From assembly GCA_963778135.1 (NCBI GenBank), contig CAVZTC010000009.1:1231826-1263825 (forward strand): a stretch of 32,000 bases of DNA, given 5' to 3'. The notes beneath the pieces are model-generated. The model was not told where the DNA came from. It saw only the letters and a list, made by a program, of their open reading frames with translations, and did not search any database. Made by a program: the position numbers and the translations under genes. Shown here piece by piece: positions 3,512 through 32,000 of the stretch (position 1 is its first letter; each line of letters begins with the position of its first letter). The DNA is from an uncultured Actinomycetota bacterium. Lineage in GTDB: Bacteria; Actinomycetota; Actinomycetes; Mycobacteriales; Mycobacteriaceae.

Positions 3512-4576
3512 TTGAAGGACTGCCGTGACCTCAACGGACCAACGGATCAACCGCGCTTCGCGTTTGGTGCGCTGAACGGCGAGCGATCGCGATGGTTCCT
3601 GCCGACATGCCCGACAGAGCAACCCGACCAGCCGCCCGCCCACCTTGTTGTGGGAGACGAAGGCTCGGGACGCAGCGTGCCGATTTTCGACCAGCTGTAC
3701 GTCGGCCGGGAATGCGCGGGGATCAGCGAGGGACGCCGCCTGGTGATCGACGACCCCGAGATCTCCCGTACCCACCTGGAGATCCGGCTGGACGCCGCGC
3801 GCGATCAGGCTTTCGTGATCGACACCAGCACCAACGGTACGTCGCTCAATGGCGCGCGGCTGGAGCGCGCGGTTCCGGTGCCGATCAGACCGGGCGATCA
3901 GATGAGGATCGGCGACCACGCGCTGACCTTCCGGTCGCAGCGGTTCACGGCTATCAGAAAGACAACCCCGCGGCGCACGCTGGCCCGGATCGGCAAGTCC
4001 GCGCTGGTGATGGTGGTCGGCGACATCGTCAACTATTCGACGATTTCGCAGGTCACGGACGAGGGCGTGATGGCGCAAAGCCTGCACACCCTGTGGCATC
4101 GGCTGGCCGGAGTCCTGGCCGACTATCAGGGAACGCTGAGCCATTTCGCCGGCGACGCGCTGTTCGCGGTGTGGGAGCTGGGCAGGTTCCCGGACGCGGC
4201 CGGGCTGGCGATCGACTTTGCGCTGACCGGGAACCGGCTTGTCGAGGAACTCGCACCCGAGCTGCCGTTGCGCGGCCCGGACGGCGCGCCGATCCACATG
4301 GGCTGGGGTGTTGTGCAGGGTACCGCCGCCCAGGCCGCGATGAGCCGGGCGACCGACGCGGTGATCGGCGACTCGGCGAACGTGGCGTTCCGGTTGGCGG
4401 GGCTGGCCGGCCGCCAGGGTCGGGCGGCGGTGCTGGTGACCACCTCCGTGCGCATCGCCGTTTCGGCACAGTTCAAGTGGGGCGAGGGCGAGCGGGTCGA
4501 GATCAAGGGCCGACGCGGGACGGAGGCCGTCTACCCCGTTACCGAGCGCGACACGTCCGGGACGGCGCCGGCATAA
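3512..4576 (+). CDS. FHA domain-containing class III adenylate/guanylate cyclase
   Basis: The N-terminal FHA signature is LYVGRE...ISRTHLEIRLD...FVIDTSTNGTSLNG...IRPGDQMRIGDHALTF. The cyclase homology domain is ALVMVVGDIVNYS...FAGDALFAVWE...IGDSANVAFRLAG...VEIKGRRGTEAVY. The start is uncertain; TTG 3512 is the first start codon in the frame. Confidence 0.85.
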   Translation: MKDCRDLNGPTDQPRFAFGALNGERSRWFLPTCPTEQPDQPPAHLVVGDEGSGRSVPIFDQLYVGRECAGISEGRRLVIDDPEISRTHLEIRLDAARDQAFVIDTSTNGTSLNGARLERAVPVPIRPGDQMRIGDHALTFRSQRFTAIRKTTPRRTLARIGKSALVMVVGDIVNYSTISQVTDEGVMAQSLHTLWHRLAGVLADYQGTLSHFAGDALFAVWELGRFPDAAGLAIDFALTGNRLVEELAPELPLRGPDGAPIHMGWGVVQGTAAQAAMSRATDAVIGDSANVAFRLAGLAGRQGRAAVLVTTSVRIAVSAQFKWGEGERVEIKGRRGTEAVYPVTERDTSGTAPA

Positions 4577-5895
4577 GGGGACGTGACGCCGCCGCGTTGA
4601 GGTAGCCGCGCCCCGGCCAGAATCCGGCCGGCCACCAGCGCGGTCACCATCACGCCGACACCGACCAGTCCGTCGTCCTTGAGGCCCCACTTCACCGACG
4701 CCAGGATCGCCGCCCCCGCCACGCACAGCAGCGCGCCGACGCCCACGCCGCGCCCGACCGACGTGATGTCGGGGGCGCCGTCCCAACCGGGCAACCGGTT
4801 GTTCTCCAGCGGGCGCAAGGCCATGAACAGCACCGCCACCACGGCGATCATGATGAGCAGCTGCGCGACGCTGATCGCGGCGAAATGCTGCTGCCCGGGG
4901 TAGCGAGGGTAGCTCAGCTGATCGAAGAGCAGGTGCACGCACAGCAGCGCCGGCATATGCCAGAGATAGATGGTCATGGCACCGGAGTTGCCGACCGCCG
5001 TCCACCACCACACGCGTGGCCGCCGCGCCCACCGGGCGATCGCGGGTGCCGCCGCGATTGCCAACGCGCTCAACACGATTGAGTGCCCGGCGAGCAGCAG
5101 CGACGGTGGGCTGATGTTGGCAAGACGCTGGCCCGAGATGCCCACCAGGCTCAGGTCGTACGGCCCCCACCGCACCAGCGCGACATCGACGGCAAAGAAC
5201 GCCGCGGCGATCCCCAGCGCGGCGCGGCCGGAGAGCAGCTGGCGCCGGTAGGCGACGCCGAACATGGCCGGGATGAGCCAGACCGCGAAGTTGACGTAAC
5301 CGATTGGGGCCGAGGCGGGCCAGTGCAACCGGATCGCGTCGTCTGCCGCGACGATCCCGCAGACCGTCACCAAACCCGCGGCGAGGCGGGCAGTGGTGGT
5401 GATCCGGAACAGCACCGGGATCGCGGCCAGCACCAGCACGTAGACGCCGAGGAACCAGAGCAACTGAATGCTGACCCCGGCGATCGGGTCGTACACGTGC
5501 CTGGGCAGCACTCGAATCAGGACCGTTAGCGCGACCGCCCAAAACGCGAGGTAGTAAAACACCGGCCGAAATAGCCTGGTGCAGCGCTTCATCAGCCAGC
5601 CGCCCCAGCTCGTGCCCGGTCGCCACGACGACACGCACGCCGCGGCGCCGGCGAAAAAGAACAGCGGCATGATCTGAAAAATCCAGGTCAGTGCTTGAAA
5701 CGTGGTCGAAGTGGTGAGCAGGTTGTCCCAATGGAGCACGCCGTTGCGGATGACGCTGACGGCCATCACGGTGTGGCCGAGCACCACACCGATCAGGCTT
5801 ACGATGCGGATCACGTCGATTGCGCGGTCGCGATCGGCCGGGGTGTCTTCCGCCAGCTCGGCGGGGCTGGGAAAGCCCATGAGAGTTGAGGTCAC
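4531..5895 (-). CDS. acyltransferase family 3 integral membrane protein
   Basis: 454-aa, strongly hydrophobic multi-pass ORF. The N-terminus (DRAIDVIRIVSLIGVVLGHT) matches the conserved acyltransferase_3 R..D..R......V...H motif. Its 3' end overlaps the convergent cyclase gene by 46 bp. Confidence 0.8.
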   Translation of the reverse strand: MTSTLMGFPSPAELAEDTPADRDRAIDVIRIVSLIGVVLGHTVMAVSVIRNGVLHWDNLLTTSTTFQALTWIFQIMPLFFFAGAAACVSSWRPGTSWGGWLMKRCTRLFRPVFYYLAFWAVALTVLIRVLPRHVYDPIAGVSIQLLWFLGVYVLVLAAIPVLFRITTTARLAAGLVTVCGIVAADDAIRLHWPASAPIGYVNFAVWLIPAMFGVAYRRQLLSGRAALGIAAAFFAVDVALVRWGPYDLSLVGISGQRLANISPPSLLLAGHSIVLSALAIAAAPAIARWARRPRVWWWTAVGNSGAMTIYLWHMPALLCVHLLFDQLSYPRYPGQQHFAAISVAQLLIMIAVVAVLFMALRPLENNRLPGWDGAPDITSVGRGVGVGALLCVAGAAILASVKWGLKDDGLVGVGVMVTALVAGRILAGARLPQRGGVTSPYAGAVPDVSRSVTG

Positions 5896-6547
5896 CCAAA
5901 AAGGATCGCGGACGGGACGGTGCCCGCGCCTGCGTAGAACTACCTGTCTCTAGGCCGCGATCGTTCGCAAAATGCGCGTTTACCGGTGTCCACGGCGCCG
6001 AACCGGTGCGGCGGGCGTGGGCATGCGCCGGGCCGCGGTGCTCGGCGATGCGGCCTATGGTGCTGGCAAGCTGCTGACCAGTGCCGGCGCGTAGATTCTT
6101 AGCAACGTTCAGCCGCCGAGCGCACCAGGCGGCCGGTTCACCATCGACCCGAACGCAGTGACCTCCGCGATCCGCCCCGCCGAAATCGGGTTGCGGTACG
6201 GCCATGGGGTGGCGATTCTGGTTCGGCAGCCCGCGCACCGCGCCGAACTGGCCACCGCCGGGAACGCCGTGGAGTCATCATCGACGGCCCCGGTGATCAG
6301 CCGGGCTTCGCTGTCACCATCGGAAGCACCCGCATCGCCGATGCCGCCCGACGGTGCGTAGTTAACCGCGATGACGGGACCCTGGTGTTCCTCGACGGCA
6401 CCGAGCTGGCGGCCTGCCCGACATAGGTCTGTTGGACAACGGTATCGTCCGACACGGAAGACCCCCCCTAACTAATTGCTGAGGACCGCGGAGGCAAGTG
6501 AAGCGTCGCCGCGCAGCCTCAGTGCTCAACGATCAGGAGCTGAGCCG

Positions 6548-6778
6548 GTGAGCGTCAACCCATTTGACGACGACAATGGCAGCTTCTTCGTCTTGATCAA
6601 TGACGAAGAGCAGCATAGCTTGTGGCCAACCTTTGCCGATGTCCCCGCCGGTTGGCGGGTGGTCTTCGGCGAGGCGGCGCGGGCCGAATGCCTGGACTAC
6701 ATCGAACAGAACTGGCCCGATATCCGGCCCAAGAGTCTGCGTGACCGCCTTGCCCGGCAACAGTCCGGTGGTGCGTAA
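6548..6778 (+). CDS. mbtH: MbtH-family NRPS accessory protein
   Basis: The sequence [60 protein letters not shown] is the MbtH signature with its three conserved Trp. The ORF track opens at 6476. I prefer the in-frame GTG at 6548, preceded by AGGAG at 6535-6539, which gives the usual ~76 aa. Confidence 0.9.
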
Positions 6779-7182
6779 ATACTGTTACGCCGTACACCCA
6801 CACCTGGTTACTTGAGGCTTCCTGCTCGGGGCTTTGGTAACGGACACGCGGCACCGCGCCCGCACGACTGATTGCTCCTGACAGGTAATCGATCGCGCAG
6901 GTCGCTTCGGCGTGAACGACGCGACCGTCCGGATCATCGACGGGCTCACTGGCTGTCACAGCGGGGGTTGGCCGGTCGGGATCGTCGGGATTATCACGGA
7001 TCGCGAGATGGGAAATGAGCGGACCGGATCCGGCATCGATTGTGTTTGCTGACGACACGCATTATTGGCATCGGTGTTGTTAGCATTTTCGGGCTGCCGC
7101 GTTTGCGTTCGGCATCTGAATATGAATTCATTATGATGACTTCGCGAACGTGCTAGTTCATCCCTGACCTCACCAAGCGGCG

Positions 7183-8052
7183 TCACCATTTTCCGAGCGG
7201 TTCAGAGCTGGACCCCATTGGTTGGATAGTCCGCTGCGGTTCGCAGGTTGAGACCTGCTGCTGGTAGACCTCGTCAGGAGTGCGGCGGTTCAGGGCGTGT
7301 TGGCCTTGTCGGCTGTTGTAGAACTCGAAGTAGTGCGCCCAGGCCAGGAGGGGCGTGGCCAGGCCTCCTCGTATTTGACGCCGCGCCAATGCCGTTCAAT
7401 GAATACATTGTCCGTCCCACACGCCCCGACCAGCCATGCTGATAGTGATGCCGTGGTAATTGAGCACGCCGGTGAATGCCTCGCTGGTGAATTGCGAGCC
7501 TTGGTTCGGCGCATCAATGCAGAAACTGGTTGACCATCGTGTTGGACGGCCGCCGGCACAGCAACTTGCGCGAGTACCGGTCCATGGCTGCAACGATGTG
7601 CATGAAGCCGTTGGGCCATCGGCAGATAAGTTATGTCCGCGCAACAGATCTGGTGGGAACAGTCGTTCCAGCGCGCGCAGCAGGTACGGGTAGATCCACT
7701 GCCCTACTGCCGGGATCGTGGTCTGTCGCATCGGATACAACCCAGCTAGCCGCATGATGCGCATCGGCGCACCACCTTTATACGATTGACCACCAAGGCG
7801 TCGCCGACGAGGGCGTCGACGATGCGTCGACTGCCGAAAAAACGGCTGGATCAGCTGGATTTCATCGATCCTGAGGCCCTCGATCTAAGAATTGCCCTCC
7901 ATCGTCAGCTCACCGATCTTGACGTGCAGCCCCTTCTGCTCTTCGGCCAACGCCGCCAACGCCGCCAACGCCGCCTTGGCGTTGAACTGCGTCGAATGAT
8001 TCCTACGCTTGCGCCTTGCCGCGAGATGCTCCCTCGTCCGTTCACCCGTCAT
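7183..8052 (-). mobile_element. decayed IS3-family insertion sequence (orfA and orfB remnants, multiple frameshifts and internal deletion)
   Basis: The minus-strand orfB pieces are spread over three frames. One is RIMRLAGLYPMRQTT...IYPYLLR...DAPNQGSQFTSEAFTGVLNYHGITISMAGRG (7396..7764). Another is DNVFIERHWRGVKYEE (within 7290..7619). The third is YFEFYNSRQGQHALNRRTPDEVY (7183..7389). My translation of 8052-7890 gives an orfA remnant, MTGERTREHLAARRKRRNHSTQFNAKAALAAL...LHVKIGELTMEGNS*, which lacks the middle of orfA. The terminal inverted repeats could not be identified, so the element boundaries are approximate. Confidence 0.75.
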
Positions 8053-8169
8053 CGAAGCAGCCCCTATTTAATCGATTGTCAAAAATTGCGGGCCCGTCTC
8101 TGTTCCGGTATGGCGTGGACTTGTCTACGATGAGGCGTCCTATTTGCCCACATAGGGAGGAGTGAGTAC

Positions 8170-9831
8170 GTGGTGAGCTTCTTGGTGTCGCCCCCGGAGA
8201 TCATTTCTTCGCGTCTGTTTTCCGGTGCTGGTCCGGGCTCGCTGTTGGCGGCCGCGGCCTCCTGGCAGGGCCTGTCCTCGGAGTTACAGACGGCGGCGTC
8301 GTCGTTCGGGTCGTTGACGTCGACGCTGGCGAGCGGACCGTGGCAGGGCGCTGCGTCGGCGGCGATGATGACTGTGGCTGCGGGCCACGTGCAGTGGTTA
8401 ACGGCGGTTGCGGCGCGAGCTGACGAGACCTCCGCGGGGGCCATGGCGGCGGTGTCGGCGTTTGAGGCGGCGCAGGCATCCACTGTGCACCCCTTGGTGG
8501 TTGCGGCGAACCGCGCTCGGTTCGTGTCGTTGGCGTTGTCGAACCTGTTCGGGCTGAACGCCCCGGCGATCGCGGCCACCGAGGCGCACTACGCGCAGAT
8601 GTGGGCCCAGGATGTGGAGGCCATGGTCGGCTACCACGGCGCGGCCTCGGCGGCGGCGTCGAGCCTGCAGTCCTGGGAGGATGAGCTGACGAGCTTCCTG
8701 GAGGCCTATTCAAACCTTGGGTCGGGCAACACCGGGGGCTTGAACCTGGGCAATAACAACACCGGCTGGTTGAACATCGGATCTGATAACTCCGGGCTGG
8801 GCAACATTGGCAATGGCAACATTGGGAACGGCAATCTGTTCGCCGGTAACGCCAAAGGCTCGTTCAACCTTTTCAGTCTCAACGCTACAGGCTTCGTCAA
8901 CTTTATCAGTCTCAACGCTAACGGCATCCTCAACTTTATCAGTCTCGGCAACACCGGCAATTTCAACACAACCAATTTCAACCCCGCCGGTCCCGAGTTG
9001 GCCATTCTTGCTCTTCTCACTCCTGAGGATCCCCTGTCTTGGATCGAGTACCCCAGGTTCTTGAGCGACCTAACCGGCGGCCTCGTCGGAATTGGCTATC
9101 CACATCCTGGCCTCAACAACCTGCCTTTTACGATAGCAATCTCTGGTGGAAATAACGGCCTCAATAACTTTGGCGGGGGAAACTTTGGTGAATTTAACTT
9201 CGGGCACGGAAATCTAGGAGACTGGAACAAGGGCAGCGGAAATATCGGGATCGCGAACTCCGGCAGCGGAAATATCGGAAATTACGACACCGGCAGCGGG
9301 AATATCGGAGACCATAACACGGCGGGTGGGAACATCGGCAGCTACAACGTCAGCGCCGGAAACATTGGCAACCATAACGTGAGCGGGCTGCGCGGGGTGT
9401 TAATGAGTGTGTTAACCGTCCCCATGACTCTCAACGGAACAATCCCAGGAATTTACGTCGATTTGTTGCCGTATGTGAAGGATGTCCAGAATGTCACGCA
9501 TGCCCTGCAGAGCACCATAGGATCCTTCAGTGGCGGAGCGAACATCGGCGACTTCAACGTTGGCAGCGCGAACTTTGGCAGCAACAACTTCGGCTCCGCC
9601 AACATCGGCGACTTCAACGTGGGCAGCGTAAACGTCGGCAGTCATAATGTTGGCTTCGCAAATACAGGCGCGGGGCACACCGCGGCAATCAACGACTATG
9701 GCCTGGCCAACACGGGTAGCAACGATGTCGGCTTTGCCAACACGGGCAATCACGACGTCGGCATCGGCCTTACCGGTGACAACCAGGTGGGTATTGGCCC
9801 CGGTTTCTTCAGTCTGGGGTCAGAACGGTAA
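8170..9831 (+). CDS. PPE family protein, MPTR subclass; ORF as it stands, truncated by a frameshift
   Basis: The N-terminal ~175 aa form a typical PPE domain: VSFLVSPPEIISSRLFSGAGPGSLLAAAASWQGLSSEL...HYAQMWAQDVEAMVGYHG. Asn/Gly NxGxGNxG-type repeats follow. A GGGAGGAG Shine-Dalgarno sequence lies at 8154-8161, ahead of GTG 8170. Confidence 0.9.
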   Translation: MVSFLVSPPEIISSRLFSGAGPGSLLAAAASWQGLSSELQTAASSFGSLTSTLASGPWQGAASAAMMTVAAGHVQWLTAVAARADETSAGAMAAVSAFEAAQASTVHPLVVAANRARFVSLALSNLFGLNAPAIAATEAHYAQMWAQDVEAMVGYHGAASAAASSLQSWEDELTSFLEAYSNLGSGNTGGLNLGNNNTGWLNIGSDNSGLGNIGNGNIGNGNLFAGNAKGSFNLFSLNATGFVNFISLNANGILNFISLGNTGNFNTTNFNPAGPELAILALLTPEDPLSWIEYPRFLSDLTGGLVGIGYPHPGLNNLPFTIAISGGNNGLNNFGGGNFGEFNFGHGNLGDWNKGSGNIGIANSGSGNIGNYDTGSGNIGDHNTAGGNIGSYNVSAGNIGNHNVSGLRGVLMSVLTVPMTLNGTIPGIYVDLLPYVKDVQNVTHALQSTIGSFSGGANIGDFNVGSANFGSNNFGSANIGDFNVGSVNVGSHNVGFANTGAGHTAAINDYGLANTGSNDVGFANTGNHDVGIGLTGDNQVGIGPGFFSLGSER

Positions 9832-10306
9832 CTATGGTTTCTTCAACTCGGGCACCAATAATATTGGTGTCTTCAATTCAGGCTCCGGAAATGCGGGCGC
9901 GTTCAATTCAGGCATCCAGTCCACGGGAATCGGAAACGCCGGCATCACTGACGCCGGCTTGTGGAACACGGGCATGGGCAACGCGGGCTGGGGAAACTCG
10001 GGCAACTTCAACACTGGCCTCTGGAACGCGGGTGATAACAATAGCGGCTGGGGGAATGCCGGCAACGGAAATACCGGCCTATTCAACGCGGGTCTGAACA
10101 ACAGTGGACCCTATAACGCGGGCGACGGAAACCAGGGCGCCTACAACGGCGGCAACAATAACGTCGGCGTCGATAATTCGGGTAATACGAATAACGGGGC
10201 ATTCAACTCGGGCAACACAGACCAGGGCGCCTTTAACTCGGGCAGCTCCGATACGGGCTGGTGGAACTCTGGCTCGGGCATTCACGGTGTCGGCAATCAA
10301 CCTTAA
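9820..10306 (+). pseudogene. 3' continuation of the same PPE-MPTR gene, displaced into the +1 frame
   Basis: The frame of ORF 9647..10306 continues perfect MPTR repeats from about 9817: GQNGNYGFFNSGTNNIGVFNSGSGNAGAFNSG...GWWNSGSGIHGVGNQP*. Removing one G from the GGGG run at 9816-9819 joins ...GIGPGFFSLG to QNGNYGFFNSG in a single frame. Confidence 0.75.
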
Positions 10307-10345
10307 TGGCCACCGGCTCATCGAGGGCATTCGTAAGGTTGTTGA

Positions 10346-10982
10346 GCTGGTGTGTTGCCGCCAGGATTGGTAGCTGACGATTGCTCCGACGTAACAAGGC
10401 CTACCGGTATCCGATCGAGGTCATCGGGCATGCGCTGCCGCTGTATCACCATGGCACTGCCACGTTAGTGAGCGTCGGCGAACTGCAAGGATGGGCGGGG
10501 TGAGGACCGCAACGGCGTCGTACAAGGGCCGCCGCCTCCCGTTGGAGGTCATCAAGTTCGGGCAGGCCTACGCCAACGGGCTACGTCGACGTCGCCCCGG
10601 CCCGGGTGACAAGTGGCACCCGGATGAGGTCTTCGTGAAGATCAACGGGGTCACCCATTACCTGTGGTGCGCAGTCGACCAGGCCGGCAACTCCCATCAA
10701 CCCGCCCGCCTCCATGAACGGGCGATGAAACGCTTTAAATCGGCCCGCGATGCCGAACGGCTCCCGTCATCCTTCAGCGGTATCTCCCCACATTTTCGAC
10801 CGCGACGGAACCGGTCTGGCGCGACCGAATGGCTAGCCGAAATGGCTCACCGCTTCGCGGCCTGGCACGAGGTCACCGTACCCCACGCGGCCGCCTGAAA
10901 TATCGACGACCATAAGCTGATCCGTAGATATGGCTCCAAAACCAACTGTGGCACAGCATATTCCGATTGATGCGACAGTGCC
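10346..10982 (+). mobile_element. decayed IS6-family insertion sequence (transposase pseudogene ~10396-10898 plus right terminal inverted repeat)
   Basis: Transposase fragments read YRYPIEVIGHALPLYH (frame 1, from ~10402), then KFGQAYANGLRRRRPGPGDKWHPDEVFVKINGVTHYLWCAVDQAGN. This last fragment is joined directly to SHQPARLHERAMKRFKSARDAERLPSSFSGISPHFRPRR. There is therefore a frameshift, and the internal deletion removes the central catalytic region. The right end, GATGCGACAGTGCC (10969-10982), matches 11 of 14 bases of the IS26-type terminal repeat TTTGCAACAGTGCC. The left boundary is only guessed, from GGTGTGTTGCC at 10348. Confidence 0.7.
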
Positions 10983-10997
10983 CCCAGGAAGGGATGG

Positions 10998-12767
10998 GTG
11001 TTGATGGCGCCAGCCAAGAGCTCCGTAGCCACCGAACCTCGCAGTATGTTCAGTCTGCTTCGCGCTCACTGGGTCTCGATGACGGTGAGCGTGTTGTTGC
11101 TCGGCGTTGCGACCATGCTTACCTTGCTGCAGCCGCTACTGGCTGGTCGGCTCGTCGACCGCGCAGCGTCGGGCTCATCGACCCTGGCGTTGGCCGTCTT
11201 GCTGGTGATCATGCTTGTCGGACAGCTGCTCCTCGAGTGGTTAGGGCATTTCCAGCTGGGACGGACCGGCGAGCAAATCGTGTTGCGGTTGCGAGCTGTC
11301 TTCACCGATCATGTGGTGCGCCTGCCCATCGGATTGTTGGACCGGGGTCGCACCGGAGACCTGCTGGCCCGCGGAACCAGCGACGCCAGCATGGTGCGGG
11401 AAATGCCACGCGCCTTCGCCGACATCGTGTTTGGGGTGCTGACCTTCGTCGGTGTGAGTGTTTTCATGCTCACAATTGATGCCCTCACCGTGAGTATCGT
11501 GGCAGCTGTCATGGTGGCCGTGTTCGCTGTCGGCAGCCCGTTTCTGTCACGGATCCAACGCGCCGCACTCAATCGCCAAGTCGCGCTTGGTAACTACACG
11601 GCCGCGTTGGACCGAGCCCTGGGCGCCGCTCGCACCATAAAGCTGTTCGGCGCCGAAGACCGCGAAGTAGCGGCCATCAGCTCAAGCGCGCTCGCCGCCT
11701 GTAAGTCTGGGGTTCGCATCGCGCTTTCCACCGCCGTCTTCGAATCCATTACCAGGTTGGGATTTACCGGCTCGTTTTTGGCGATCATGATTATCGATGG
11801 GAGCCGCGTCGCGGACGGTCACCTAACGGTTGGCCAGTTCGTCAGCCTGTTCGCCTTCGCTATGTACGCGAGTCAGCCCGTCACCGCCGGCTTTGTCGCA
11901 CTCACCAAACTGCGTACCGCGGCCGGTGGATATCAACATCTCAGCGCCACCCTGCGGGAACTGCCGGAAGGCGATCCACCGTCAGTTGCCGTTGCCGACG
12001 GGGTCACGAGGCCGTGCGCTGTGCAGGCAGACCAGAACACCGCGCCACTGGTCCAGTTCGAGCACGTGTCGTTTTCCTACGGCGAGGCACCCGTGCTCGA
12101 CGACGTCTCCTTCACGCTCGGCCCAGATCAGATCACCGCGCTGATCGGGCCGTCTGGCGCTGGAAAGTCAACCATCCTGGCGCTGCTGTGCCGCTTCCAC
12201 GACCCGGGCGCCGGGACGGTGCGCTGGGAAGGCCACGACTTCCGCAGCATCCCCCTCAGGGAACTCCGCGGCCGACTCGGGCTTTTGGAACAGGACGCAC
12301 CCGTGCTGCACGGCACCATCCGCGACAACCTGCTCATCGCCGACCCCGACGCCGACGACGCCGACTTATGGCTCGTCCTCGAACAGGCGAACATCGCCGA
12401 CGAAATCGCCAGTCTTCCTGAACGACTCGACACCCCCGTACTCGAACGCGGGCGCGGCCTTTCCGGTGGCCAACGCCAGCGACTAGCCCTGGGCCGTGCA
12501 TTTCTATCGCGATCGCAGCTCATCCTCATGGACGAACCAACCGCACATCTCGACCGCGCCAACGAATACGACGTCATGACCAAGCTGCTGCAGGCGCGCG
12601 GCCAACGCAGTCTCCTCGTGGTTGCCCACCGTCTCTCCACCGTGACCAATGCCGACCAAATCCTGGTTCTTCAGCACGGCCGGATCCAAGCAGCCGGCAC
12701 CCACACTGAACTATTGCGCATGCCCATTTACCGCGAACTTATCGAGCGGGAACTCGCCGCCCACTAG
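10998..12767 (+). CDS. ABC exporter, fused permease/ATP-binding half-transporter
   Basis: 589 aa with an N-terminal six-helix-type ABC membrane domain. The NBD has Walker A GPSGAGKST, a Q-loop LLEQD, the signature LSGGQRQRLALGRAF, Walker B LILMDEPTAHLD and the H-loop VVAHRLST. Candidate starts are GTG 10998, TTG 11001 and ATG 11004. Confidence 0.9.
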   Translation: MLMAPAKSSVATEPRSMFSLLRAHWVSMTVSVLLLGVATMLTLLQPLLAGRLVDRAASGSSTLALAVLLVIMLVGQLLLEWLGHFQLGRTGEQIVLRLRAVFTDHVVRLPIGLLDRGRTGDLLARGTSDASMVREMPRAFADIVFGVLTFVGVSVFMLTIDALTVSIVAAVMVAVFAVGSPFLSRIQRAALNRQVALGNYTAALDRALGAARTIKLFGAEDREVAAISSSALAACKSGVRIALSTAVFESITRLGFTGSFLAIMIIDGSRVADGHLTVGQFVSLFAFAMYASQPVTAGFVALTKLRTAAGGYQHLSATLRELPEGDPPSVAVADGVTRPCAVQADQNTAPLVQFEHVSFSYGEAPVLDDVSFTLGPDQITALIGPSGAGKSTILALLCRFHDPGAGTVRWEGHDFRSIPLRELRGRLGLLEQDAPVLHGTIRDNLLIADPDADDADLWLVLEQANIADEIASLPERLDTPVLERGRGLSGGQRQRLALGRAFLSRSQLILMDEPTAHLDRANEYDVMTKLLQARGQRSLLVVAHRLSTVTNADQILVLQHGRIQAAGTHTELLRMPIYRELIERELAAH

Positions 12768-12873
12768 TCCTCGAATAAGCGAGTCGGTGTCAGCGGAACC
12801 TTCCCGGCGTGTCCAGAGACTTTCTGGTGTGAGAACTCAGCCGGCGGCTGGTCTCTGGTGATGAGCGCAGTTG

Positions 12874-13243
12874 GCCGCCGTCATTTCGATCGACGTGATG
12901 TCTCCGCAGTATTGGCACGAGCGGTGGTGATTGAATTTATTCGCGTGATCAAGCCGAACGCGGCGGTCATGAGGTACGGTATCAAGGCGGTTGAGAATGC
13001 CGTCGAAGATCTTCTAGCGGCCGATTTGGTGGTATGCCGCCTCCATTTCGATCGGAGGGTGTGTCAGCAGTATTGGTACGAGCGGCGGTGGTTGAATTTA
13101 TGCGGGTGATGGAGTCAAACGCGGCGGTCAGTGTGTGGCGTCATCGCGCTGCCGCCTGACATGTCAACGACCTAAAGCCGAGCCATAGATAGAGCTACCA
13201 CGGCAACTGTGCCACACTATATTCCGATTAACGTGGCAGAGCC
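12874..13243 (+). mobile_element. second IS6-family 3'-end remnant, partially duplicated in tandem
   Basis: 13151-13243 aligns without gaps to 10890-10982, which is the last transposase codons, the stop, the 84-nt tail and the terminal repeat of the first IS6 copy. I counted 70 of 93 identical positions, including the block TATTCCGATT and the terminal CAG(T/A)GCC. Upstream, two ~100-bp direct repeats (12874-12975 and 13036-13137, period 162) resemble the transposase C-terminal coding part. Copy B translates PPFRSEGVSAVLVRAAVVEFMRV...AAA*, against PHFRPRRNRSGATEWLAEMAHRF...AAA* in the first copy. Confidence 0.55.
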
Positions 13244-13415
13244 CACCAACCTGACCAACCAAGCCCAACATCCAACTCGCGACCGCGCCGCGACTAACAA
13301 CCGGCCGAACCGCGGCAACACGCTGCCGCCCCCCAAAAAAACGCCAGGTCAAACGCCCGAACTGAATGTATACCCCGGAGCCATACTCTTTCGACCGAGT
13401 GATTAGGGTAGCCGG

Positions 13416-15782
13416 ATGGAACGTGATGGCCAGGCGCTTCCGCTTTCGCGGGCACAGCTAGGTATTTGGTTTGCGCAGCAAGCGGGTTTCTTCGATACGG
13501 AGTGGCCGATCGGCCTATTTCTGATAGTCGAGGCGGCTGTAGTACCTGATGTGGTTGAGCAGGCAATCCGGAGAGTAGTGGAAGAGGCTGAGCCAATCAG
13601 GGCCACTTTCTTCGAGGCGGATGGCGAGATTTACCAAAAGGTAATTGAAGACCCGGATATCGAGCTTCCGCTGTATGACCTGAGGTCCTCGAATGATCCC
13701 GTGCAGGAGGCGTACAGGATAGCGGAGTCGATCCAACGTAAGCCGATGCCGCTCGATGGCCCGTTGTTTAAATTTGCGTTATTGCGGACGAGGACCGATG
13801 AGTCCTACGTATTCCTGTGCTGCCACCATATCGTCGTCGACGGGTTCGGCATTGGAATTCTTGGGCATCGGATCGCGGCTGTCTACTCTGCACTGGTTTC
13901 TGGCGTGCCCATCCCGCCCGGGTTCTTCGGCTCGCTGCATGACCTGATTGAGTGCGAATCAGAATACGAAGCATCCGCCGAATATCACGACGATCTGGCC
14001 TACTGGAAAAGAAATCTTCCACCGGATACGGCACAGCAATATCGGTTGCCGCAGGCGACCGGAGGGGGTGATTCCGGCTGGCGCTCTGCGCCGGTACAAC
14101 TGGACCCTTCGGTTGTCGCTCGAATACAGGAGTTATCGGAGTTTTTGGGTGTTCGCCGAGCCTCGGTGACGACGGCGGCGTGCGCGCTTGTGGTGCATGA
14201 ATTGTCCGCTGGGGGCCCCGAGGTGGTGCTCGACTTCCCGGTCAGTCGGCGCGTGCGTCCGGAGTCGAAGATGGTTCCCGGCATGTTCGCCGGGGTGGTG
14301 CCTTTGGTGTTGACGGCGTCGCCGGGATCGACGGTTGCCGGTTTTTGTGAGCATGTTGACGGACGAATACGAGAAACGCTGCAACATCAGCGTTTTCCGG
14401 TGCACATTCTTGAGGGCAGGGACCGCCTCCTTGACCCGCATGGCGCGGCACAACGGGTGAATATCAATTTCATCCCGGCCGCGATGAGTGGGACCTTCGG
14501 GGGTGCGCCGGGATCGGGATTGGTGACCACTTTTGGCCCGGTGGGCCACTTTGCGCTGTTCTTCCTGCGAGCCGGTGATGAGCTGTCGCTGAGCACCGCG
14601 GGTTGCGGGCAGCCGTTTTCGAATTTCTCCGTCGCCGATTTAGCGCGTCGATTGGAGCAGGTGGTGGTGGCGATGGCCGCCGACCCCTCCCGGCGGCTGG
14701 CGTCGATGGATCTGTTGGACGGTGGTGAGCACGCCCGGCTGGACGGCTGGGGGAATCGGGCGGTGTTGACCCGGCCGGCGAGCGCACCGGTGTCGATTCC
14801 GCCGTTGTGGGCCGCCCAAGTTGCACGCACGCCGGAGGCGGTGGCGCTGACGTTCGCGGGGCGCTGCACGACGTACCGGGGGCTTGAGGAGGCGTCGAAC
14901 CGGTTGGCGCACCTGCTGGTGGGCCGGGGTGTGGGTCCGGGGCAGTGTGTGGCGCTGCTGTTTACCCGTTCCATCGATGCGATTACCGCGATTACGGCGG
15001 TGCTGAAGACGGGGGCGGCCTATCTCCCCATCGATCCGGGCCTGCCGGCGGCCCGGATCGCGTTTATGCTCGCTGATGCGGCACCGGTGGCCGCGATCAC
15101 CACCACCGCGCTGGCCGCCCACCTCGAGGGCTATGACCTGCTGGTCATCGATGTCGAGGACCCCGCCATCGACACCCAACCCGTTACCGCGCTACCGGCG
15201 CCGCGCCCCGATGACCTGGCCTACCTGATCTACACCTCGGGCACCACCGGAACCCCCAAGGGCGTCGCGGTCAGTCATGCCGGCATTCCCGACTTAGTGG
15301 CCACCCGCGCGGAGCGTCTTGGCATCGGGCCGACGAGTCGCGTCCTGCAGTTTGCTCCGTTCATCTTCGATGCGTCGGTGGTGAACCTGTGGGTTGCGTT
15401 GTTGACCGGCGCGACCGCAGTACTGCCCGCCGAGGACCAAGCGCTACCGGGCCGGGAATTAGTGGACTTGATCGTCGAGCAGAACGTCTCTCACGGGGAA
15501 TTGACGCCCACCGCGATCGCCGCCCTCCCCGAACACCGAGCTGCACGGCATGACTGTGATTGCCGGCGGCGAGGTCTGCTCGACAGACCTTGTCGCGCGC
15601 TACGCCGATGCCGGCTCCTTCATCAACTCCTACGGCCCGACCGAGGCGAGCGTGGACCTGACCATGACGGGCCCGCTGGCTGCCGATTGCGGAACGCCAC
15701 CGATTGGTTACCCGGTGTCGTGGGCGGGGTTGTTTGTCCTGGATGGCTGGTTGCGCAGGGCGCCACTGGGTGCGGTCGGTGA
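13416..15782 (+). CDS. NRPS segment 1 (starter C domain plus first part of A1); meaningful translation ends at ~15528
   Basis: ORF-track protein begins [29 protein letters not shown] (C3 motif) lies at 13824-13844 and [17 protein letters not shown] (A3 motif) at ~15220. After ...[10 protein letters not shown] the ORF degenerates into an Arg/Cys-rich tail, while the +1 frame continues with [14 protein letters not shown]. Confidence 0.85.
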
Positions 15783-16480
15783 ACTGTATGCCGCGGGTCG
15801 CGGTGTGGCCTATGGGTATTGGGGCCGTTCACGCGAGACCGCGTCGCGGTTTGTGGCCTGCCCATTCGGGGGAGTCGGCGAACGCATGTATCGCACCGGG
15901 GATCTGGTGTGGTGGGGTGCTGATGGGCAGTTGCGGTATGCGGGGCGCGCTGATGAGCAGGTCAAGATCCGCGGGTATCGCATTGAGCTGGGCGAAGTCC
16001 GGGCCGCGCTGGCCCAGCTTGCGGGGGTGGAGCAGGCGGTGGTGATCGCCCGTGAGGACCGTCCTGGGGATCGGCGGCTGGTGGGTTATGTGACGGGGAC
16101 GGCGGACCCGGCCGCGGTGCGTAGCGTGCTGGCCGAGCGGCTGCCGGTCTATATGGTTCCCGCGGCCGTGGTGGTGGTGGAGGCGTTGCCGTCGACGCCT
16201 AACGGCAAGCTCGACGTCCGCGCGTTGCCGGCCCCCGATTTTGGCGATGTTGACCGGTATCACGCCCCAGCGACGCCGGTTGAGGAGATCTTGGCCGGTA
16301 TTTTCGCGCGGGTCTTGGGGTTAGCGCGGGTGGGGGTCGAGGACTCGTTTTTCGAGTTGGGTGGGGATTCCCTGTCGGCGATGCGCCTGATTGCGGTGGT
16401 CAACAAGTCGTTGGGTGCTGGTCTGTCGGTGCGGACGGTGTTTGAGGAGCCGACGATCGCGGGGTTGGCGCGGCATCTCG
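13416..16480 (+). other. NRPS module 1: C(starter-type)-A1-T1
   Basis: C1 spans ~13416-14700 (HHIVVDG at 13824-13844). A1 spans ~14740-16240 ([49 protein letters not shown]). T1 spans ~16260-16480 ([18 protein letters not shown] at ~16359-16376). Frameshift 1 lies inside A1. Confidence 0.8.
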
Positions 16481-19400
16481 GCGCAGACACGGTTGCGCGT
16501 CAGCCGCTGGTGGCTGGTGAGAGGCCGGCGGTGGTGCCGTTGTCGTTTGCCCAGCAGCGGTTGTGGTTTTTGAATCGGTTCGAGGGCGGGGTCGCCACCT
16601 ACAACATCCCGGTCGCGTTTCGGGTGAGCGGGGCGCTGGATGTCGAGGCGTTCGGTGTGGCGCTCGATGATGTGATCGCCCGTCATGAGTCGCTGCGCAC
16701 CGTGTTTCCCGATCGGGAGGGTGTGCCGGTCCAGCAGGTGATACCGGCGTCGGCGGGGTTGTGGCGGCGCGGTGGTGCCGCGGTGCTGGCGGTGCCGGAG
16801 GCCGAGGTGGTCGCGGAGTTGGTGGGGTTGGCCGGGTATCGGTTTGATTTGGCCGGCGAGGTCCCGATCCGCGCGCAGATCTATGCGCTGGGCCCCGAGC
16901 AGTATGTGGTGGGGATGGTGGTGCACCACATCGCGTTTGATGGGTGGTCGCTGGCCCCGATGGTGCGTGATGTGGCCCAGGCGTACGCGGCGCGCTGCCA
17001 GGGCGGCGCCCCGGGTTGGGCGCCGTTGCCGGTGCAGTATGTCGATTACACGTTGTGGCAACGGCAGTGCTTGGGCGAGGAGTCTGATCCGCACAGTGCG
17101 ATCGCCGCGCAGTTGGCCTACTGGCGCCAGGAGTTGGCGGGGCTGCCGCAGGTGGTGTCGCTGCCCACCGATCGGCCCCGTCCGGCGGTAGCCAGTTACC
17201 GCGGTGATGCGGTGGCGCTGGTCATTGAGGCGCCGGTGTGGGCGGGGGTCAAGGCGCTGGCCGCCGAGCACAACGCGACGCCCTCGATGGTGTTGCAGGC
17301 GGTCATGGCGGTGGTGTTGGCCAAGGCCGGGGTCGGTTCGGATGTGGTGATGGGTTCGGTGATCGCCGGGCGTTTGGATGAGGCGCTCGATGATCTGGTC
17401 GGGTTTTTCGTCAACACCTGGGTGTTGCGGGTCGGTGTCGAGGCCGGCGACCGGTTCGGTGAGGTGTTGGCGCGGGTGCGCGACAAGGCGCTGAATGCCT
17501 ACACCCATCAGGAGATTCCGTTTGAGTTGCTGGTGGAGCGGCTCAACCCGGTGCGTTCAGCGGCGCATCATCCGCTGTTTCAGGTGTGCATGGTGCTCCA
17601 GAACAATGCGCTCCCCGAGCAGATTGCGCTGGACGGGGTCGCCGTTGAGCCGCTGGCGACGTCCACCCACACCGCCAGGTTCGACCTGGACATCCAGCTG
17701 TGGGAGGTGCCCACCGGGGATCCGGGGGTGTCGATGGCCGCCGGTGCGGTGACCTATGCCACGGATTTGTTTGACCGGGCCAGCATCGAGCGGTTGGTCG
17801 GCTGGTTCGCGCGGGTCCTGCAAGCGGTCATCGCCAATGCCTTGGTGCCCGTCGCAGAGGTGTCGTTGCTGGATGCCGGTGAGCGTGATCGGGTGCTGTC
17901 CGACTGGTCTGGCGCCCAGGTGGAGGCGCCGGTAGGGGTGGCGCCGGCGTTGCTGGCTGCCGCGGTGGCCGCTGACCCGGACGCGGTGGCGGTCATCGAC
18001 GGCGACCGGCAGCTGTCGTATCGCGAGCTTGATGAGTGCTCGACGCGGTGGGCTCGGGTGCTGATCGAGACCGGGGTGGGTCCCGAGCGCGCAGTGGGTG
18101 TGGCGACGGGTCGGTCTGTGGAGTTGGTGGTCGCCTGGTGGGCGGTGGCCAAGGCCGGCGGGACCTATGTGCCGGTGGATCCGACCCATCCGGTGGCGCG
18201 GGTCGCAGCGGTATTGGATGCGGTGAGCGCGGAGTGTGTGTTGACCTGTGGTGTCGACACCATGGCCGCGGCCGGGGCCCGCCCGGTGCTGCGCATGGAT
18301 GTTTCAGACGCCCTGGACGTGTCCGCGCGTTCCGCGGAACCGATCACCGATGCCGAGCGGCTGGCGCCGCTGACGGTGGACAACTCCGCGTATGTGATCT
18401 TCACGTCCGGGTCTACCGGTGTCCCCAAGGGGGTGGCGGTCAGCCACGCCGGTCTGCTCGGGCTGGCCGCCGCGCTACGGGCGGTGTTCGAGGTGGATGC
18501 CGGTGCGCGGATCCTGATGGTGGCCGCACCGACCTTCGATGCCTCGATTAGCGAGATGTTGGTGGCGGTGGAGTCGGGGGCGGCGCTGGTGGTGGCGCCG
18601 CCGGAGGTGTATGCCGGTGCGGCGTTGACCGCGTTGCTGGCCGAGCAGCGGGTCAACGCCGCGAAATTGACCCCGTCGGTGCTGGCGACGCTGGATCGGG
18701 CCCGACTGGGCGGATTGGGCACCGTGGTCGTCGCCGGTGAGGCGTGCCCGGCGGAGTTGGTGCACACCTGGGTGCCGGGCCGGCGGATGGTCAACGCCTA
18801 CGGCCCCACCGAGGCCACCGTCTGGGCGACCTGTGCACGACTCGTGGCGGGCCAGCCCGTTACCATCGGCGCTCCGCTTGCGGGGGCGTGCGCGCTGGTG
18901 CTCGATTCCCGACTGAATCCGGCCCCGATCGCGGTGGTGGGCGAGTTGTATCTGGCCGGGCCCGGTCTGGCCCGCGGTTATGTGGGCCGGGCGGGGTTGA
19001 CCGCGGAACGCTTTGTAGCCAATCCTTTCGGGGGTGCCGTTGGCCAGAACGGGACGCCGGGAACACGGATGTATCGCACCGGGGACCTGGTGCGCTGGAC
19101 CCCGGCCGGTGACCTGGAGTACCTGGGTCGCGCTGATGCCCAGATCAAACTGCGTGGGCAGCGTATCGAGTTGGGTGAGATCGAAAACACCCTGTTGGCG
19201 TGCCCTCAGGTCAGCCAGGCCGCCGCGGCCGTGCATCACAGCGATACCGGTTCTGCGCTGGTCGCCTACATCACTGTGGAGGACACCGCCAGCCCCGATC
19301 ACGACGCCGAAAGCCTCGAAGAGTGGCAACACCTGCATGACGAGCTGTATGGCGCTGAGCTAGCCCAGGTCCCTGGGGTCCCGGGGGTCCCTGGGGTCCC

Positions 19401-22400
19401 TGGGGTCAATGGGATCGAGGCGCCGGGGTTCGGGATGGACTTTCGGGGCTGGAACAGCAGCTTTACCGGTGATCCGATTCCGCTGGAGGAGATGCTGGAG
19501 TGGCGTTCGGCCACGGTGGATCGGATCTTGGCCTTGGGGCCGCGGCGGGTGTTGGAGATCGGGGTGGGCAGCGGACTGCTGTTGTCGCAGATCGCCCCGC
19601 ACTGCGAACGCTATGTCGGCACCGATGTGTCGGGCGTGGTCATCGACAACATGGCCGGCGCGCTGCAGCGCCAGGGCCAGTGGCGGGATCGCGTCGAGTT
19701 ACACGCCCAGCCCGCTCACCTGGCTGAGGCGTTGCCGCGCGGCTATTTCGACACCATCATCGTCAACTCGGTCGTCCAGTACTTCCCGCACGCGGGGTAT
19801 CTGACCGAGGTCCTCGACACCGCGCTGGATTTGTTGGCCCCGGGTGGGGCGGTGTTTATCGGCGATGTGCGCAACCACGGCCTGGCCGCCGCGTTCTACA
19901 CCGCGGTCGTGTTGGCCGGTGCCGCCAGGTCAGAAACCTCGGATGCTATCGAGGCTGCCGAGATCAGTCAGCGGGTGCAGCGCGCGATGCTCGGCGAATC
20001 CGAATTGTTGTTGGCGCCGGAGTTTTTCACCGGTTGGGCCGGGGGTCAGGCGGTGGTGGCCGGGGTCGATATCGAAGTCAAGCGGGGATCGGCTGATAAC
20101 GAACTGACCCGGTATCGCTACGACGTCGTCATTCACACGGCCCCCACCGGGGTGTGTTCGCTGGCCACCGCGCCGGTGTGGGCGTGGGCCGACTGTGCGG
20201 GTCTGGACGGGCTGGGCGCCCGGTTGCAGTCCGGGCCTCGTACCGCGGTGCGCGTTACCGCCATCCCGGCCAGGGGGCTGTTCACCGACGTGCGTCGGCA
20301 CGCCGCCGTCGACGCCGCGGTGGCCGCGGGGGTTGCGCTGGGCGAGGTACTCGCCGACACCGACACTGGGGTCCCCCTGGCGGTGACCACTGAGCAGCTG
20401 CATCGCCTGGGTGAGGCCAGCGGGTATCGCGTCGCGGTCACCTGGGGTGCCCAGCCCGGCACGTTGGACGCGGTTTTCCTGGCTGCCACCGAGGCGGATG
20501 GTGAGCCCATGGCGGCGTTGACCGATATCTACCTGCCCGCGGCCGGGGATCGGCCGTACGCCAATGATCCGCAGATCACCGCCAAAGTCGGCGCGGTGCG
20601 GGCGCGGTTGAGTGCGTGGTTGCCCGAGTACATGGTGCCGGCGCACCTTGTGGTGCTTGACCAGTTTCCGTTGACGTCGTCGGGCAAGCTCGACCGTAAC
20701 GCGTTGCCGGCGCCGGTGTTTGACGCGAAACCGTTCCGGGCGCCGGCGACGCGGACCGAGGAGATCGTGGCCGGGGTGTTCGCGCAGGTGCTGGGCCTGG
20801 GTCGGGTCGGGCGCGACGACGACTTCTTTGCCCTGGGTGGGGATTCGTTGAGCGCCACTCGGGTGGCCGCGCGGTTGCAGGTCGCGGCGGGCAGTCAGGT
20901 GTCGGTGCGGTCGTTGTTCGAGGCGTCCACCGTCGCGTCGCTGGCCGAGTATCTGGGCCGCGATGGCGGTGGGCCGGTGCGCCCGCCGTTGGCGGTGATG
21001 ACGCGTCCGGCGGTGGTGCCGTTGTCGTTTGCCCAGCAGCGGTTGTGGTTCCTGGACCGGTTGGAGGGCGGGGTCGCCACCTACAACATTCCGGTCGCGT
21101 TTCGGGTGAGCGGGGCGCTGGATGTCGAGGCGTTCGGTGCGGCGCTCGATGATGTGATCGCCCGCCATGAGTCGCTGCGCACCGTGTTTCCCGATCGGGA
21201 GGGTGTGCCGGTCCAGCAGGTGATACCGGCGTCGGCGGGGTTGTGGCGGCGCGGGGGTGCCGCGGTGGCGGCGGTGCCGCACGACGAGGTGGCCGCGGAG
21301 TTGGTGGGGTTGGCCGGGTATCGGTTTGATTTGGCCGGCGAGGTCCCGATCCGCGCGCAGATCTATGCGCTGGGCCCCGAGCAGTATGTGGTGGGCATGG
21401 TGGTGCACCACATCGCGTGTGATGGGTGGTCGCTGGTCCCGATGGTGCGTGATGTGGCCCAGGCGTACGCGGCGCGCTGCCAGGGCGGCGCCCCGGGGTG
21501 GGCGGCGTTGCCGGTGCAGTATGTCGATTACACGTTGTGGCAACGGCGGTGGTTGGGCGAGGAGTCTGATCGGCACAGTGTGATCGCCGCGCAGTTGGCC
21601 TATTGGCGCCAGGAGTTGGCGGGGCTGCCGCAGGTGGCGTCGCTGCCCAGCGATCGGCCGCGTCCGGCGGTGCCCAGTTACCGCGGTGATGCGGTGGCGC
21701 TGGTTATTGAGGCGCCGGTGTGGGCGGGGGTCACGGCGCTGGCGGCGGCGCACAACGCGACGGCGTCGATGGTGTTGCAGGCGGTCATGGCGGTGGTGTT
21801 GGCCCGGGCCGGGGCCGGCGACGACATCGTGTTGGGTTCGGTGATTGCCGGGCGGTTGGATGAGGCGCTCGATGATCTGGTCGGGTTTTTCGTCAATACG
21901 TGGGTGTTGCGGGTCGGTGTGGAGGCCGGCGACCGGTTCGGTGAGGTGTTGGCGCGGGTGCGGCGCAAGGCGCTGGATGCCTACACCCATCAGGAGATTC
22001 CGTTTGAGTTGCTGGTGGAGCGGCTCAACCCGGTGCGTTCAGCGGCGCATCATCCGCTGTTTCAGGTGTGCATGGTGTTCCAGAACAATGCGCGCCCCGA
22101 GCAGGTCGCGCTGGACGGGGTCGCGGTGGAGCCGTTGGCGACGTCGACCCGGACCGCCAAGTTCGACCTGGATTTCCAGCTCAGCGAAATGCCCACCGGC
22201 GATCCGGGGGTGTCGATGGCCGCCGGGGTGGTGACCTATGCCACGGATTTGTTTGACCGGGCCAGCATCGAGCGGTTGGTCGGCTGGTTCGGGCGGGTGT
22301 TGGAGGCGGTGATCGCTGATGCCTCGGTGGTGGTCGGCGACGTGGCGTTGCTGGATGCCGGTGAGCGCGCCCGCCTGGATGGGTGGGGCAACCGCGCGGT

Positions 22401-31700: not shown

Positions 31701-32000
31701 AGCTCGACCGTAAAGCCTTGCCGGCGCCGGTGTTTGACGCGAAACCGTTCCGGGCGCCGCGGACCCGGACCGAGGAGATCGTGGCCGGGGTGTTCGCCGA
31801 GGTGCTGGGCCTGGGTCGGGTCGGGTGTGATGACGATTTCTTCGCTCTGGGTGGGGATTCGTTGAGCGCCACTCGGGTGGCCGCGCGGCTGCAGGTGGCT
31901 TTGGACAGACGGGTGTTGGTGCGGTCGTTGTTCGAGGCGTCTACCGTCGCCGATCTGGCCGACCATCTGCAGCGCCATGGTGGCGGGCCGGCCCGCCCCC
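26600..32000 (+). CDS. NRPS segment 3 (end of C4, A4-T4, C5-A5-T5), open at the right edge
   Basis: Not in the ORF track because it has no stop codon in the window. My translation in the frame of position 26600 reads [64 protein letters not shown]... It continues through [28 protein letters not shown], two [11 protein letters not shown] motifs, [26 protein letters not shown] and [11 protein letters not shown]. It ends ...[14 protein letters not shown] at 31999. Confidence 0.85.
28706..31576. repeat. 2.87-kb direct repeat, copy 2 (T4-C5 linker, C5, A5 core)
   Basis: See copy 1. Identity ends abruptly at GAAGAGTGGCAC (23821-23832 and 31565-31576), the point where MT3 begins in module 3. Confidence 0.9.
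28747..31970 (+). other. NRPS module 5: C5-A5(no MT, scar)-T5
   Basis: C5 spans ~28747-30090 (HHIACDGGS from 29150). A5 spans ~30120-31700 and is near-identical to the A3 core. T5 spans ~31750-31970 ([11 protein letters not shown]). The window ends exactly where the earlier modules begin their next C domain, so at least one more C domain is expected beyond 32000. Confidence 0.8.

Follow-up and report, generated by a model that had tools for sequence, protein, structure and literature searches.

What brought a complete ABC exporter gene to a place between an mbtH-like gene and the first gene of a nonribosomal peptide synthetase (NRPS) cluster, where remnants of insertion sequences (IS) of the IS6 family bracket it on both sides, is the question raised by a 32,000-nt stretch of DNA from an uncultured actinomycetote assigned to the Mycobacteriaceae (contig CAVZTC010000009.1, forward strand, positions 1,231,826 to 1,263,825; hereafter the window). 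The original prediction had taken the bracket for a fossil pseudo-compound transposon through which the cluster acquired its export function. The comparative analyses reported here lead to a different answer: judged from its relatives, the exporter is one of the native genes of this mycobacterial family of NRPS and polyketide synthase (PKS) clusters, and its position and promoter context in the window are secondary, not ancestral. That IS6-family (IS26-type) events were the cause of its move to between mbtH and the first NRPS gene is a reading to which we give about even chances.

The exporter gene is intact and occupies positions 10998 to 12767 on the forward strand. Its product belongs to the fused type, with both an ABC_membrane domain (Pfam PF00664, E 3.7e-31) and an ABC_tran domain (PF00005, E 1.9e-31), and the translation contains the motifs GPSGAGKST (Walker A), LSGGQRQR (signature) and LILMDEPT (Walker B), so that the complete exporter with canonical motifs that had been foreseen is indeed present. 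Translation may start at a GTG (position 10998, 589 aa) or at an ATG (position 11004, 587 aa), the latter being used by gene callers and for the product on record and fitting the ribosome-binding site GGAAGGGA better; the length matches that of the orthologues (589/587 aa). The ratio of nonsynonymous to synonymous substitution rates (dN/dS) is 0.30-0.41 against five orthologues, the same range as found among those orthologues themselves, which indicates that the gene is still under purifying selection. The branch leading to the window exporter is the longest (private dS ca. 0.17).

Orthologues sharing 70-87% aa identity were compared in 26 loci, 20 from genomes and six from metagenomes (retrieved loci are designated below by L and a number), and neither IS6 nor IS3 sequences occur in any of them. 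In every comparison, nucleotide homology with the window exporter runs from positions 10981-10998 to 12770-12772. In 16-17 of the 20 genome loci and in four of the six metagenome loci, the exporter lies downstream of same-strand NRPS genes, and the modules encoded upstream of the orthologues are the same N-methyltransferase-containing ones as in the window NRPS. With orthologues residing in some 20 homologous NRPS/PKS clusters devoid of IS6 and IS3, a situation that the original prediction itself had named as speaking against it, the acquisition of the export function by IS6-mediated capture is ruled out and the exporter is to be regarded as relocated, either within or into a cluster in which it was already in use, and not as newly acquired. 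The possibility that exporter followed by NRPS is the ancestral order in this lineage, IS elements having inserted around an unmoved gene, is strongly disfavoured and deserves very little credit. Gene order does vary among relatives, since the exporter is divergent from mbtH and PKS genes in L006 and L010 (mbtH on the minus strand) and, in L035-L037, follows a gene with an NRPS reductase domain at a distance of 158 bp and has a convergent PKS gene beyond it, but none of the 26 loci has an NRPS gene downstream of the exporter on the same strand, and in the three loci homologous to the start of the window NRPS (see below) mbtH abuts the NRPS gene with no exporter between them.

What the exporter has left behind can be read at its two ends. 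A leader of ca. 125 nt is conserved directly upstream of the gene in eight relatives, whatever gene precedes it (for instance at L032:1117-1262, L033:2329-2474, L034:1854-1999, L035:696-841, L021:1448-1593 and L006/L010:9861-10006). The leader matches no Rfam family, and covariation was seen in only one of 27 predicted pairs; it could act as a promoter or operator, or be a leader RNA of an unclassified kind. The window keeps its last ca. 15 nt (positions 10983-10997, forward strand, delimited by alignment of the upstream regions of 11 relatives), which include the ribosome-binding site, and the cut at -15 falls where the right inverted repeat (IRR) of an IS6 copy sits. Past the stop codon, about 16-25 nt can still be aligned to relatives (native remnant of ca. 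25 nt at 12768-12792, forward strand, in which TCCTCGAATAAGCGAG aligns with TCCGAAGTTGCGCGCG after the stop codon in L021, L033, L034 and L035) before an IS3-family end takes over at ca. +25. The native neighbours of the exporter in L002, L021 and L032-L034, namely a small upstream open reading frame (ORF), the leader and the downstream genes, were not detected elsewhere in the window by blastn. A hybrid outward promoter at the right end of the IS6 copy was considered and rejected, as a consensus scan of positions 10250-13500 returned no sigma-70-like site. In one of the relatives, the metagenome-assembled genome (MAG) L021, the exporter (L021:2801-5410) is frameshifted near codon 405 and a gene for a 542-aa DDE_Tnp_1 transposase (3554-5182; Pfam E 1.7e-13) lies between two copies of the exporter's last ca. 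208 nt, an arrangement suggestive of an IS insertion whose target duplication is unusually long.

Around the exporter, three IS6-family fragments, hereafter A, B and R, occur in the same orientation. They were delimited with an nhmmer profile derived from four full-length IS6 elements and run on the window with all filters off, which yielded five pieces, all on the forward strand, and no other IS6-like sequence in the window. The IS6 affiliation and common orientation that had been claimed for both ends are thus confirmed, by nhmmer E values ranging from 6e-4 to 2e-67 together with the Pfam match given below. Copy B (10453-10982) is the best preserved. It consists of three profile pieces, at 10453-10555, 10553-10691 and 10684-10982, which correspond to model positions 1-103, 215-353 and 544-842 (E 5e-27, 8e-38 and 2e-67, respectively) and share 93%, 88% and 80% identity with the closest full-length relative retrieved, an 842-bp IS6 element present in two soil metagenome contigs (L038:72-913 and L039). 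Both terminal repeats are short (ca. 14 bp) and start with GG, as is usual for IS6: the left inverted repeat (IRL; 10453-10466), GGCACTGCCACGTT, matches the L038 repeat GGCACTGTCACGTT at 13 of 14 positions, and the reverse complement of the IRR (10969-10982), GGCACTGTCGCATC, at 11 of 14. The transposase is of the IS6-type DDE kind (PF13610, DDE_Tnp_IS240, E 2.1e-8, 34.9 bits for a cutoff of 27); its product is collinear with a 236-aa IS6 transposase across all 132 retained codons and has 1757 IS6-type homologues, while the DNA matches IS6 transposase genes on Rhodococcus plasmids. Measured against the 842-bp relatives, copy B has two internal in-frame deletions of 114 and 198 bp, by which it has lost the helix-turn-helix region and, of the DDE triad, the second D as well as the E. 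At 530 bp, and having neither one intact transposase gene nor a complete triad, copy B falls short of the 700-890 bp of an IS6 element and is a dead derivative, not an active IS. Its residual ORF (10500-10898) is still open, both deletions being multiples of three and no stop codon or frameshift occurring in the 132 codons despite a neutral decay estimated at ca. 10%, and dN/dS against the L038 transposase is 0.40; this is probably due to chance, though somewhat unexpected.

Fragment A (10326-10452, forward strand) is an old 5' stub comprising an IRL-like end and the N-terminal coding region of the transposase (nhmmer E 6e-4, model positions 10-103 at 10336-10427, envelope 10326-10447). It was also picked up in the repeat search, and a weak tblastn match gives KAYRYPIEVIGHALPLYHH. 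The stub ends at ca. position 128 of the element, exactly at the IRL of copy B. The decayed left copy that had been proposed at 10346-10982 is therefore IS6 as stated, but comprises two fragments and not a single copy, the true IRL of the second being at 10453. Fragment R (13125-13243, forward strand; nhmmer E 6.3e-15, model positions 718-842) is reduced to a 3' stub of 119 bp, which carries the end of the transposase gene with its stop codon TGA (13157-13159), the 3' non-coding region and the IRR, with 78% identity to L038. The right end of copy B (10982) lies 15 bp before the GTG and 21 bp before the ATG of the exporter, and the second IS6 end begins 384 bp past the exporter stop codon; the spacing of 15 and 384 bp agrees with that first described.

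The similarity between the two 3' ends is exact as originally counted: positions 10890-10982 and 13151-13243 are identical at 70 of 93 positions without gaps, the right piece including stop codon and terminal repeat, whereas the runner-up among the 93-mers of the window, both strands included, reaches 46 and the background across the window has a mean of 23.3 (sd 4.3). The repeat search lengthens the pair to 98 nt at 76% identity. Both ends derive from one IS6 lineage, that of L038. Identity amounts to 73-75 of 98 nt between B and R, 78 of 99 between B and L038, and 75 of 98 between R and L038. From this three-point comparison each copy would have decayed by ca. 11-13%, in line with the codon-based estimate of ca. 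10% for copy B. Such a star-like pattern could result from identical copies, each having decayed by ca. 12%, and equally from two related IS elements.

IS6 elements commonly leave 8-bp target duplications, and these had been suggested as a check. None was found for any pairing of ends (A with R, B with R, B alone, or A with B) upon comparison of the flanks TCATCGAG, ATCACCAT, CCCAGGAA and CACCAACC. The flanks of copy B, ATCACCAT and CCCAGGAA, share no 8-bp direct repeat, and the outer flanks TCATCGAG or ATCACCAT differ from CACCAACC, the best case being the 5-mer CACCA, which is out of register by 2 nt and not significant. Stubs A and R could not be taken as the halves of one interrupted IS6 either, given that no target duplication surrounds them and that the element does not continue after R. 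The lack of repeats at copy B is compatible with cointegrate formation or intramolecular events (PMC7986276) without lending positive support to them. It would also fit a scenario in which IS6 did no more than trim the locus, the exporter having been placed there by other means and an upstream IS6 having made an adjacent deletion to -15 by intramolecular replicative transposition, with the deletion end set where selection for the exporter allowed. The tightness of the bracket, in which 15 nt upstream and 25 nt downstream are kept, agrees with such trimming, as does the missing duplication around copy B, since flanking repeats are lost after intramolecular IS6 events (PMC7986276). It is improbable, however, as it leaves unexplained the second and third fragments in the same orientation as well as the site of the exporter between mbtH and NRPS.

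Between the exporter and stub R lies debris of another kind. An IS3-family 3' end (12793-12944, minus strand) begins ca. 25 nt past the exporter stop codon; all that is left of this element is its terminal sequence and the last ca. 35 transposase codons with their stop codon. Its minus strand encodes '...FNHHRSCQYCGD...AHHQRPAAG*', of which aa 367-401 match the C-terminus of an IS3 transposase (tblastn E 6e-6), and positions 12803-12913 match the end of an IS3 transposase gene on the Mycobacterium plasmid NZ_AP025525 (blastn, 77.7% over 111 nt, E 7e-13). That match spans the gene end and 34 nt beyond it, which places the fragment in the IS3 family. The IS3 debris includes a tandem duplication with a period of 162 bp (12874-13035, with a partial copy at 13036-13130), in which 12874-12969 is repeated at 13036-13130 (85% over 71 nt and 89% over 19 nt at a spacing of 161-162 in the repeat search) and the second copy still codes for 'FNHRRSYQYC' on the minus strand; the intervening positions 12970-13035 match nothing among the sequences searched. 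The region 12874-13243 can thus not be read as a single IS6 3' region, because 12803-12944 is an opposite-strand IS3 end and 13036-13130 its tandem duplicate. Of the range that had been put forward for an IS6 search, 12874-13124 is IS3 debris.

A second IS3-family element, decayed and with large internal deletions, is located further upstream (7204-8071, minus strand) and shows 80% identity, in five pieces, to the transposase region of an IS3 on the M. intracellulare plasmid NZ_CP015270, with rve-like C-terminal motifs in minus-strand ORFs. The idea that 7204-8071 and 12793-13130 together make up a composite IS3 transposon was discarded, as the two remnants match different IS3 elements and not each other.

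The extent of the insertion is best seen from loci that lack it, a comparison which the original prediction had proposed and which proved informative. In three of three loci homologous to the start of the window NRPS (L042-L044), mbtH directly precedes the first NRPS gene. The blocks that match positions 6542-6744 and 13401-15273 of the window are separated there by 37 bp (L043), 38 bp (L042) and 52 bp (L044) vs. 6657 bp in the window. The mbtH-like gene, left partner of this ancestral junction (6548-6778, forward strand; PF03621, E 2.4e-29), is 83% identical at the nucleotide level to its counterpart directly before the NRPS start in L042 and L043 and 75% in L044. The right partner is formed by the NRPS genes (13416-32000, forward strand), which encode a starter C domain and C-A-(N-methyltransferase)-T modules (Pfam Condensation, AMP-binding, PP-binding and Methyltransf_12) and continue past the window edge; the first of them shares about 57-65% aa identity with L042-L044 by tblastn, and 75-77% nt identity from 15 nt upstream of its ATG. 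The conserved junction is split in the window by an insertion complex of ca. 6.6 kb with approximate ends at 6785 and 13392, in which the IS6-bracketed exporter is nested. From left to right, the complex is made of a 419-bp orphan stretch, the IS3 element, a PPE gene, stub A, copy B, the exporter, the IS3 debris, stub R and a 149-bp spacer. The empty site consequently matches the larger interval of ca. 6785-13392 and not 10326-13243.

This composition leaves room for another explanation, in which the junction would be a tolerant, non-essential place that became an IS graveyard, the exporter and the PPE gene having arrived by other rearrangements (for example homologous recombination between dispersed IS copies, or duplication then deletion) and the IS6 and IS3 elements having inserted independently, with the bracket a coincidence. 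At least five IS fragments of three different elements do lie within 6.6 kb, target duplications are missing, B and R are star-like, the exporter is abutted on its 3' side by IS3 debris and not by IS6, and the outer flanks of the array are not ancestral. Nevertheless, we regard this account as rather unlikely, for it leaves the mover of the exporter unnamed and makes accidents of two features, namely the single orientation of the three IS6 fragments and the position of the right end of IS6-B exactly at the breakpoint of exporter homology. These same features, the direct orientation of A, B and R and the coincidence of the end of B with the homology breakpoint, together with stub A stopping at the IRL of B, match an IS26-type footprint, and a cointegrate or translocatable-unit event of the IS26 type is the best explanation for the relocation, if an unproven one.

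According to this IS6-mediated relocation, copy B would first have entered the site that the exporter originally occupied, 15 nt ahead of the gene. Together with the neighbouring exporter it would then have left as a cointegrate or a circular translocatable unit, IS6 thus acting as the carrier, and the unit would have integrated at or into a resident IS6, now stub A, giving an IS6-exporter-IS6 arrangement in direct orientation. Later, an IS3-family element would have landed 25 nt past the exporter stop codon, deletions would have cut the right IS6 to a 119-bp stub and taken 312 bp from copy B, and point decay of ca. 10-13% would have killed every IS, selection keeping only the exporter ORF intact. 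The timing is coherent, a decay of B and R of ca. 0.10-0.15 per site being consistent with, and within, the private exporter dS of the lineage (ca. 0.17). The passenger is still contiguous with the left arm, whose IRR lies at -15, while its right side is split by the IS3 debris (12793-13130) and a deletion junction.

The case for this relocation is circumstantial, and several observations weigh against it. No 8-bp target duplication accompanies any of the IS6 ends, the right neighbour of the exporter is an IS3 end, and its right inner junction has not survived. The resemblance of B to R does not exceed that of either to L038, a relationship which would allow a single parent for the two without demonstrating it. 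The arrangement is carried by only one genome, with no intermediate stages. Lastly, the outer flanks of the IS6 array are the PPE gene on the left and the 149-bp spacer on the right, not the ancestral junction, so that at least one further event must have built the 6.6-kb insert, in which the PPE gene and the other debris would have arrived.

With respect to known systems, the IS6 family is described as forming direct-repeat arrays, losing target repeats after intramolecular events and inserting into other IS6 copies (PMC7986276). The window resembles IS26/IS6 pseudo-compound transposons and translocatable units, such as Tn4352 or Tn610 with IS6100 of Mycobacterium fortuitum, in that IS6 copies in direct orientation bracket a passenger, and it also shares with such units an IS end located directly upstream of the passenger, the absence of target repeats and the occurrence of IS arrays (PMC7986276). 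It departs from them by having two dead arms, one internally deleted and the other reduced to a 119-bp stub, by the IS3 debris before the right arm, by its outer ends, which match no empty site, with no second copy or active form known, and by its cargo, which is the exporter of a chromosomal biosynthetic cluster and not a resistance gene. The fossil pseudo-compound transposon initially proposed therefore holds as regards the direct-orientation bracket, not as regards a clean two-armed form. Stub A stopping where the IRL of copy B begins further recalls IS15, in which one IS6-family copy lies inside another, as if B or a cointegrate had entered a resident IS6, although the rest of the interrupted copy and an 8-bp duplication were not found after copy B or stub R.

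Mycobacterial loci are subject to IS-driven erosion and reshuffling, which generates IS-rich and pseudogene-rich regions, for instance through IS6110 or IS2404. As in these regions, several IS belonging to different families lie decayed in the window, clustered around a rearrangement junction that adjoins PPE and NRPS genes. The window differs in its elements, relatives of IS6 and IS3 whose only known occurrences are in environmental sequences of mycobacteria or actinobacteria, and in showing no evident deletion among the biosynthetic genes that flank them. The exporter itself is like the fused exporters of mycobacterial NRPS/PKS clusters, annotated as 'ABC transporter ATP-binding protein' or 'BmrA', in aa identity (within the range given above), in its equal length and domain order, and in its association with homologous N-methylating NRPS and PKS genes, and unlike them in preceding the NRPS, with mbtH on one side and the first module on the other, and in lacking the conserved leader.

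Among the other components of the complex, the PPE-MPTR gene (8170-10306, forward strand; Pfam PPE E 1.7e-56, with Pentapeptide_2 repeats) is present as two ORFs owing to a frameshift near position 9830. The reading frame of the NRPS genes is similarly broken near 15.54 kb (ca. 15540) and 26.56 kb (ca. 26560), and the NRPS of the closest relative, the MAG L002, is fragmented likewise; these frame breaks in the PPE and NRPS genes may be indel errors of long reads rather than real pseudogenization. Taken further, they could point to an artefact of assembly, that is a chimeric join of unrelated regions at repeats in a metagenome-assembled contig, for which there is a single 1.28-Mb contig and no second record. 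This is scarcely credible, as the IS fragments are diverged, truncated and unique, unlike the identical repeats that cause misjoins, and the junctions fall at meaningful IS ends. Two N-methyltransferase modules of the NRPS, at 22252-23166 and 29996-30910, recur with a period of 7744 bp and give identical tblastn statistics.

Orphan stretches without detectable homologue occupy both edges of the complex (6785-7203 and 13244-13392). The right one, the 149-bp spacer at 13244-13392, contains a terminator-like hairpin on the minus strand (13360-13336) followed by a T-run, as might be expected at the 3' end of a gene that has since disappeared. Homologues of this spacer were found in none of the fetched loci nor in the plasmid collection, and a 20-mer taken from it gave only chance matches to unrelated contigs in metagenomes. 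Neither an Rfam family nor a tRNA that might have served as integration target was detected in the window. In L044, a DrrABC-type ABC transporter (ABC_tran and two ABC2_membrane genes, L044:6799-9277) is found just upstream of mbtH and the homologous NRPS start, indicating that different exporters occupy the head of the cluster in different lineages.

The structure is a new instance of a well-known and ordinary kind, and no new mechanism is involved. The locus is a well-resolved natural example of the reshuffling of a biosynthetic gene cluster by insertion sequences, and it is of interest to IS biology as a further candidate for the direct-repeat structures of the IS6 family, one that is chromosomal, very old and not linked to resistance. 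For the annotation of the cluster, the place and promoter context of the exporter are here to be read as secondary. The full sequence of events, by which an IS26-type unit in the chromosome of an environmental Mycobacterium lifted the cluster exporter off its leader and put it back in front of the NRPS genes of the operon, where selection maintained it while all the IS decayed, is offered only tentatively; if true, a unit whose cargo was no resistance gene would have changed the layout of a natural-product cluster and, presumably, the way in which its exporter is regulated.

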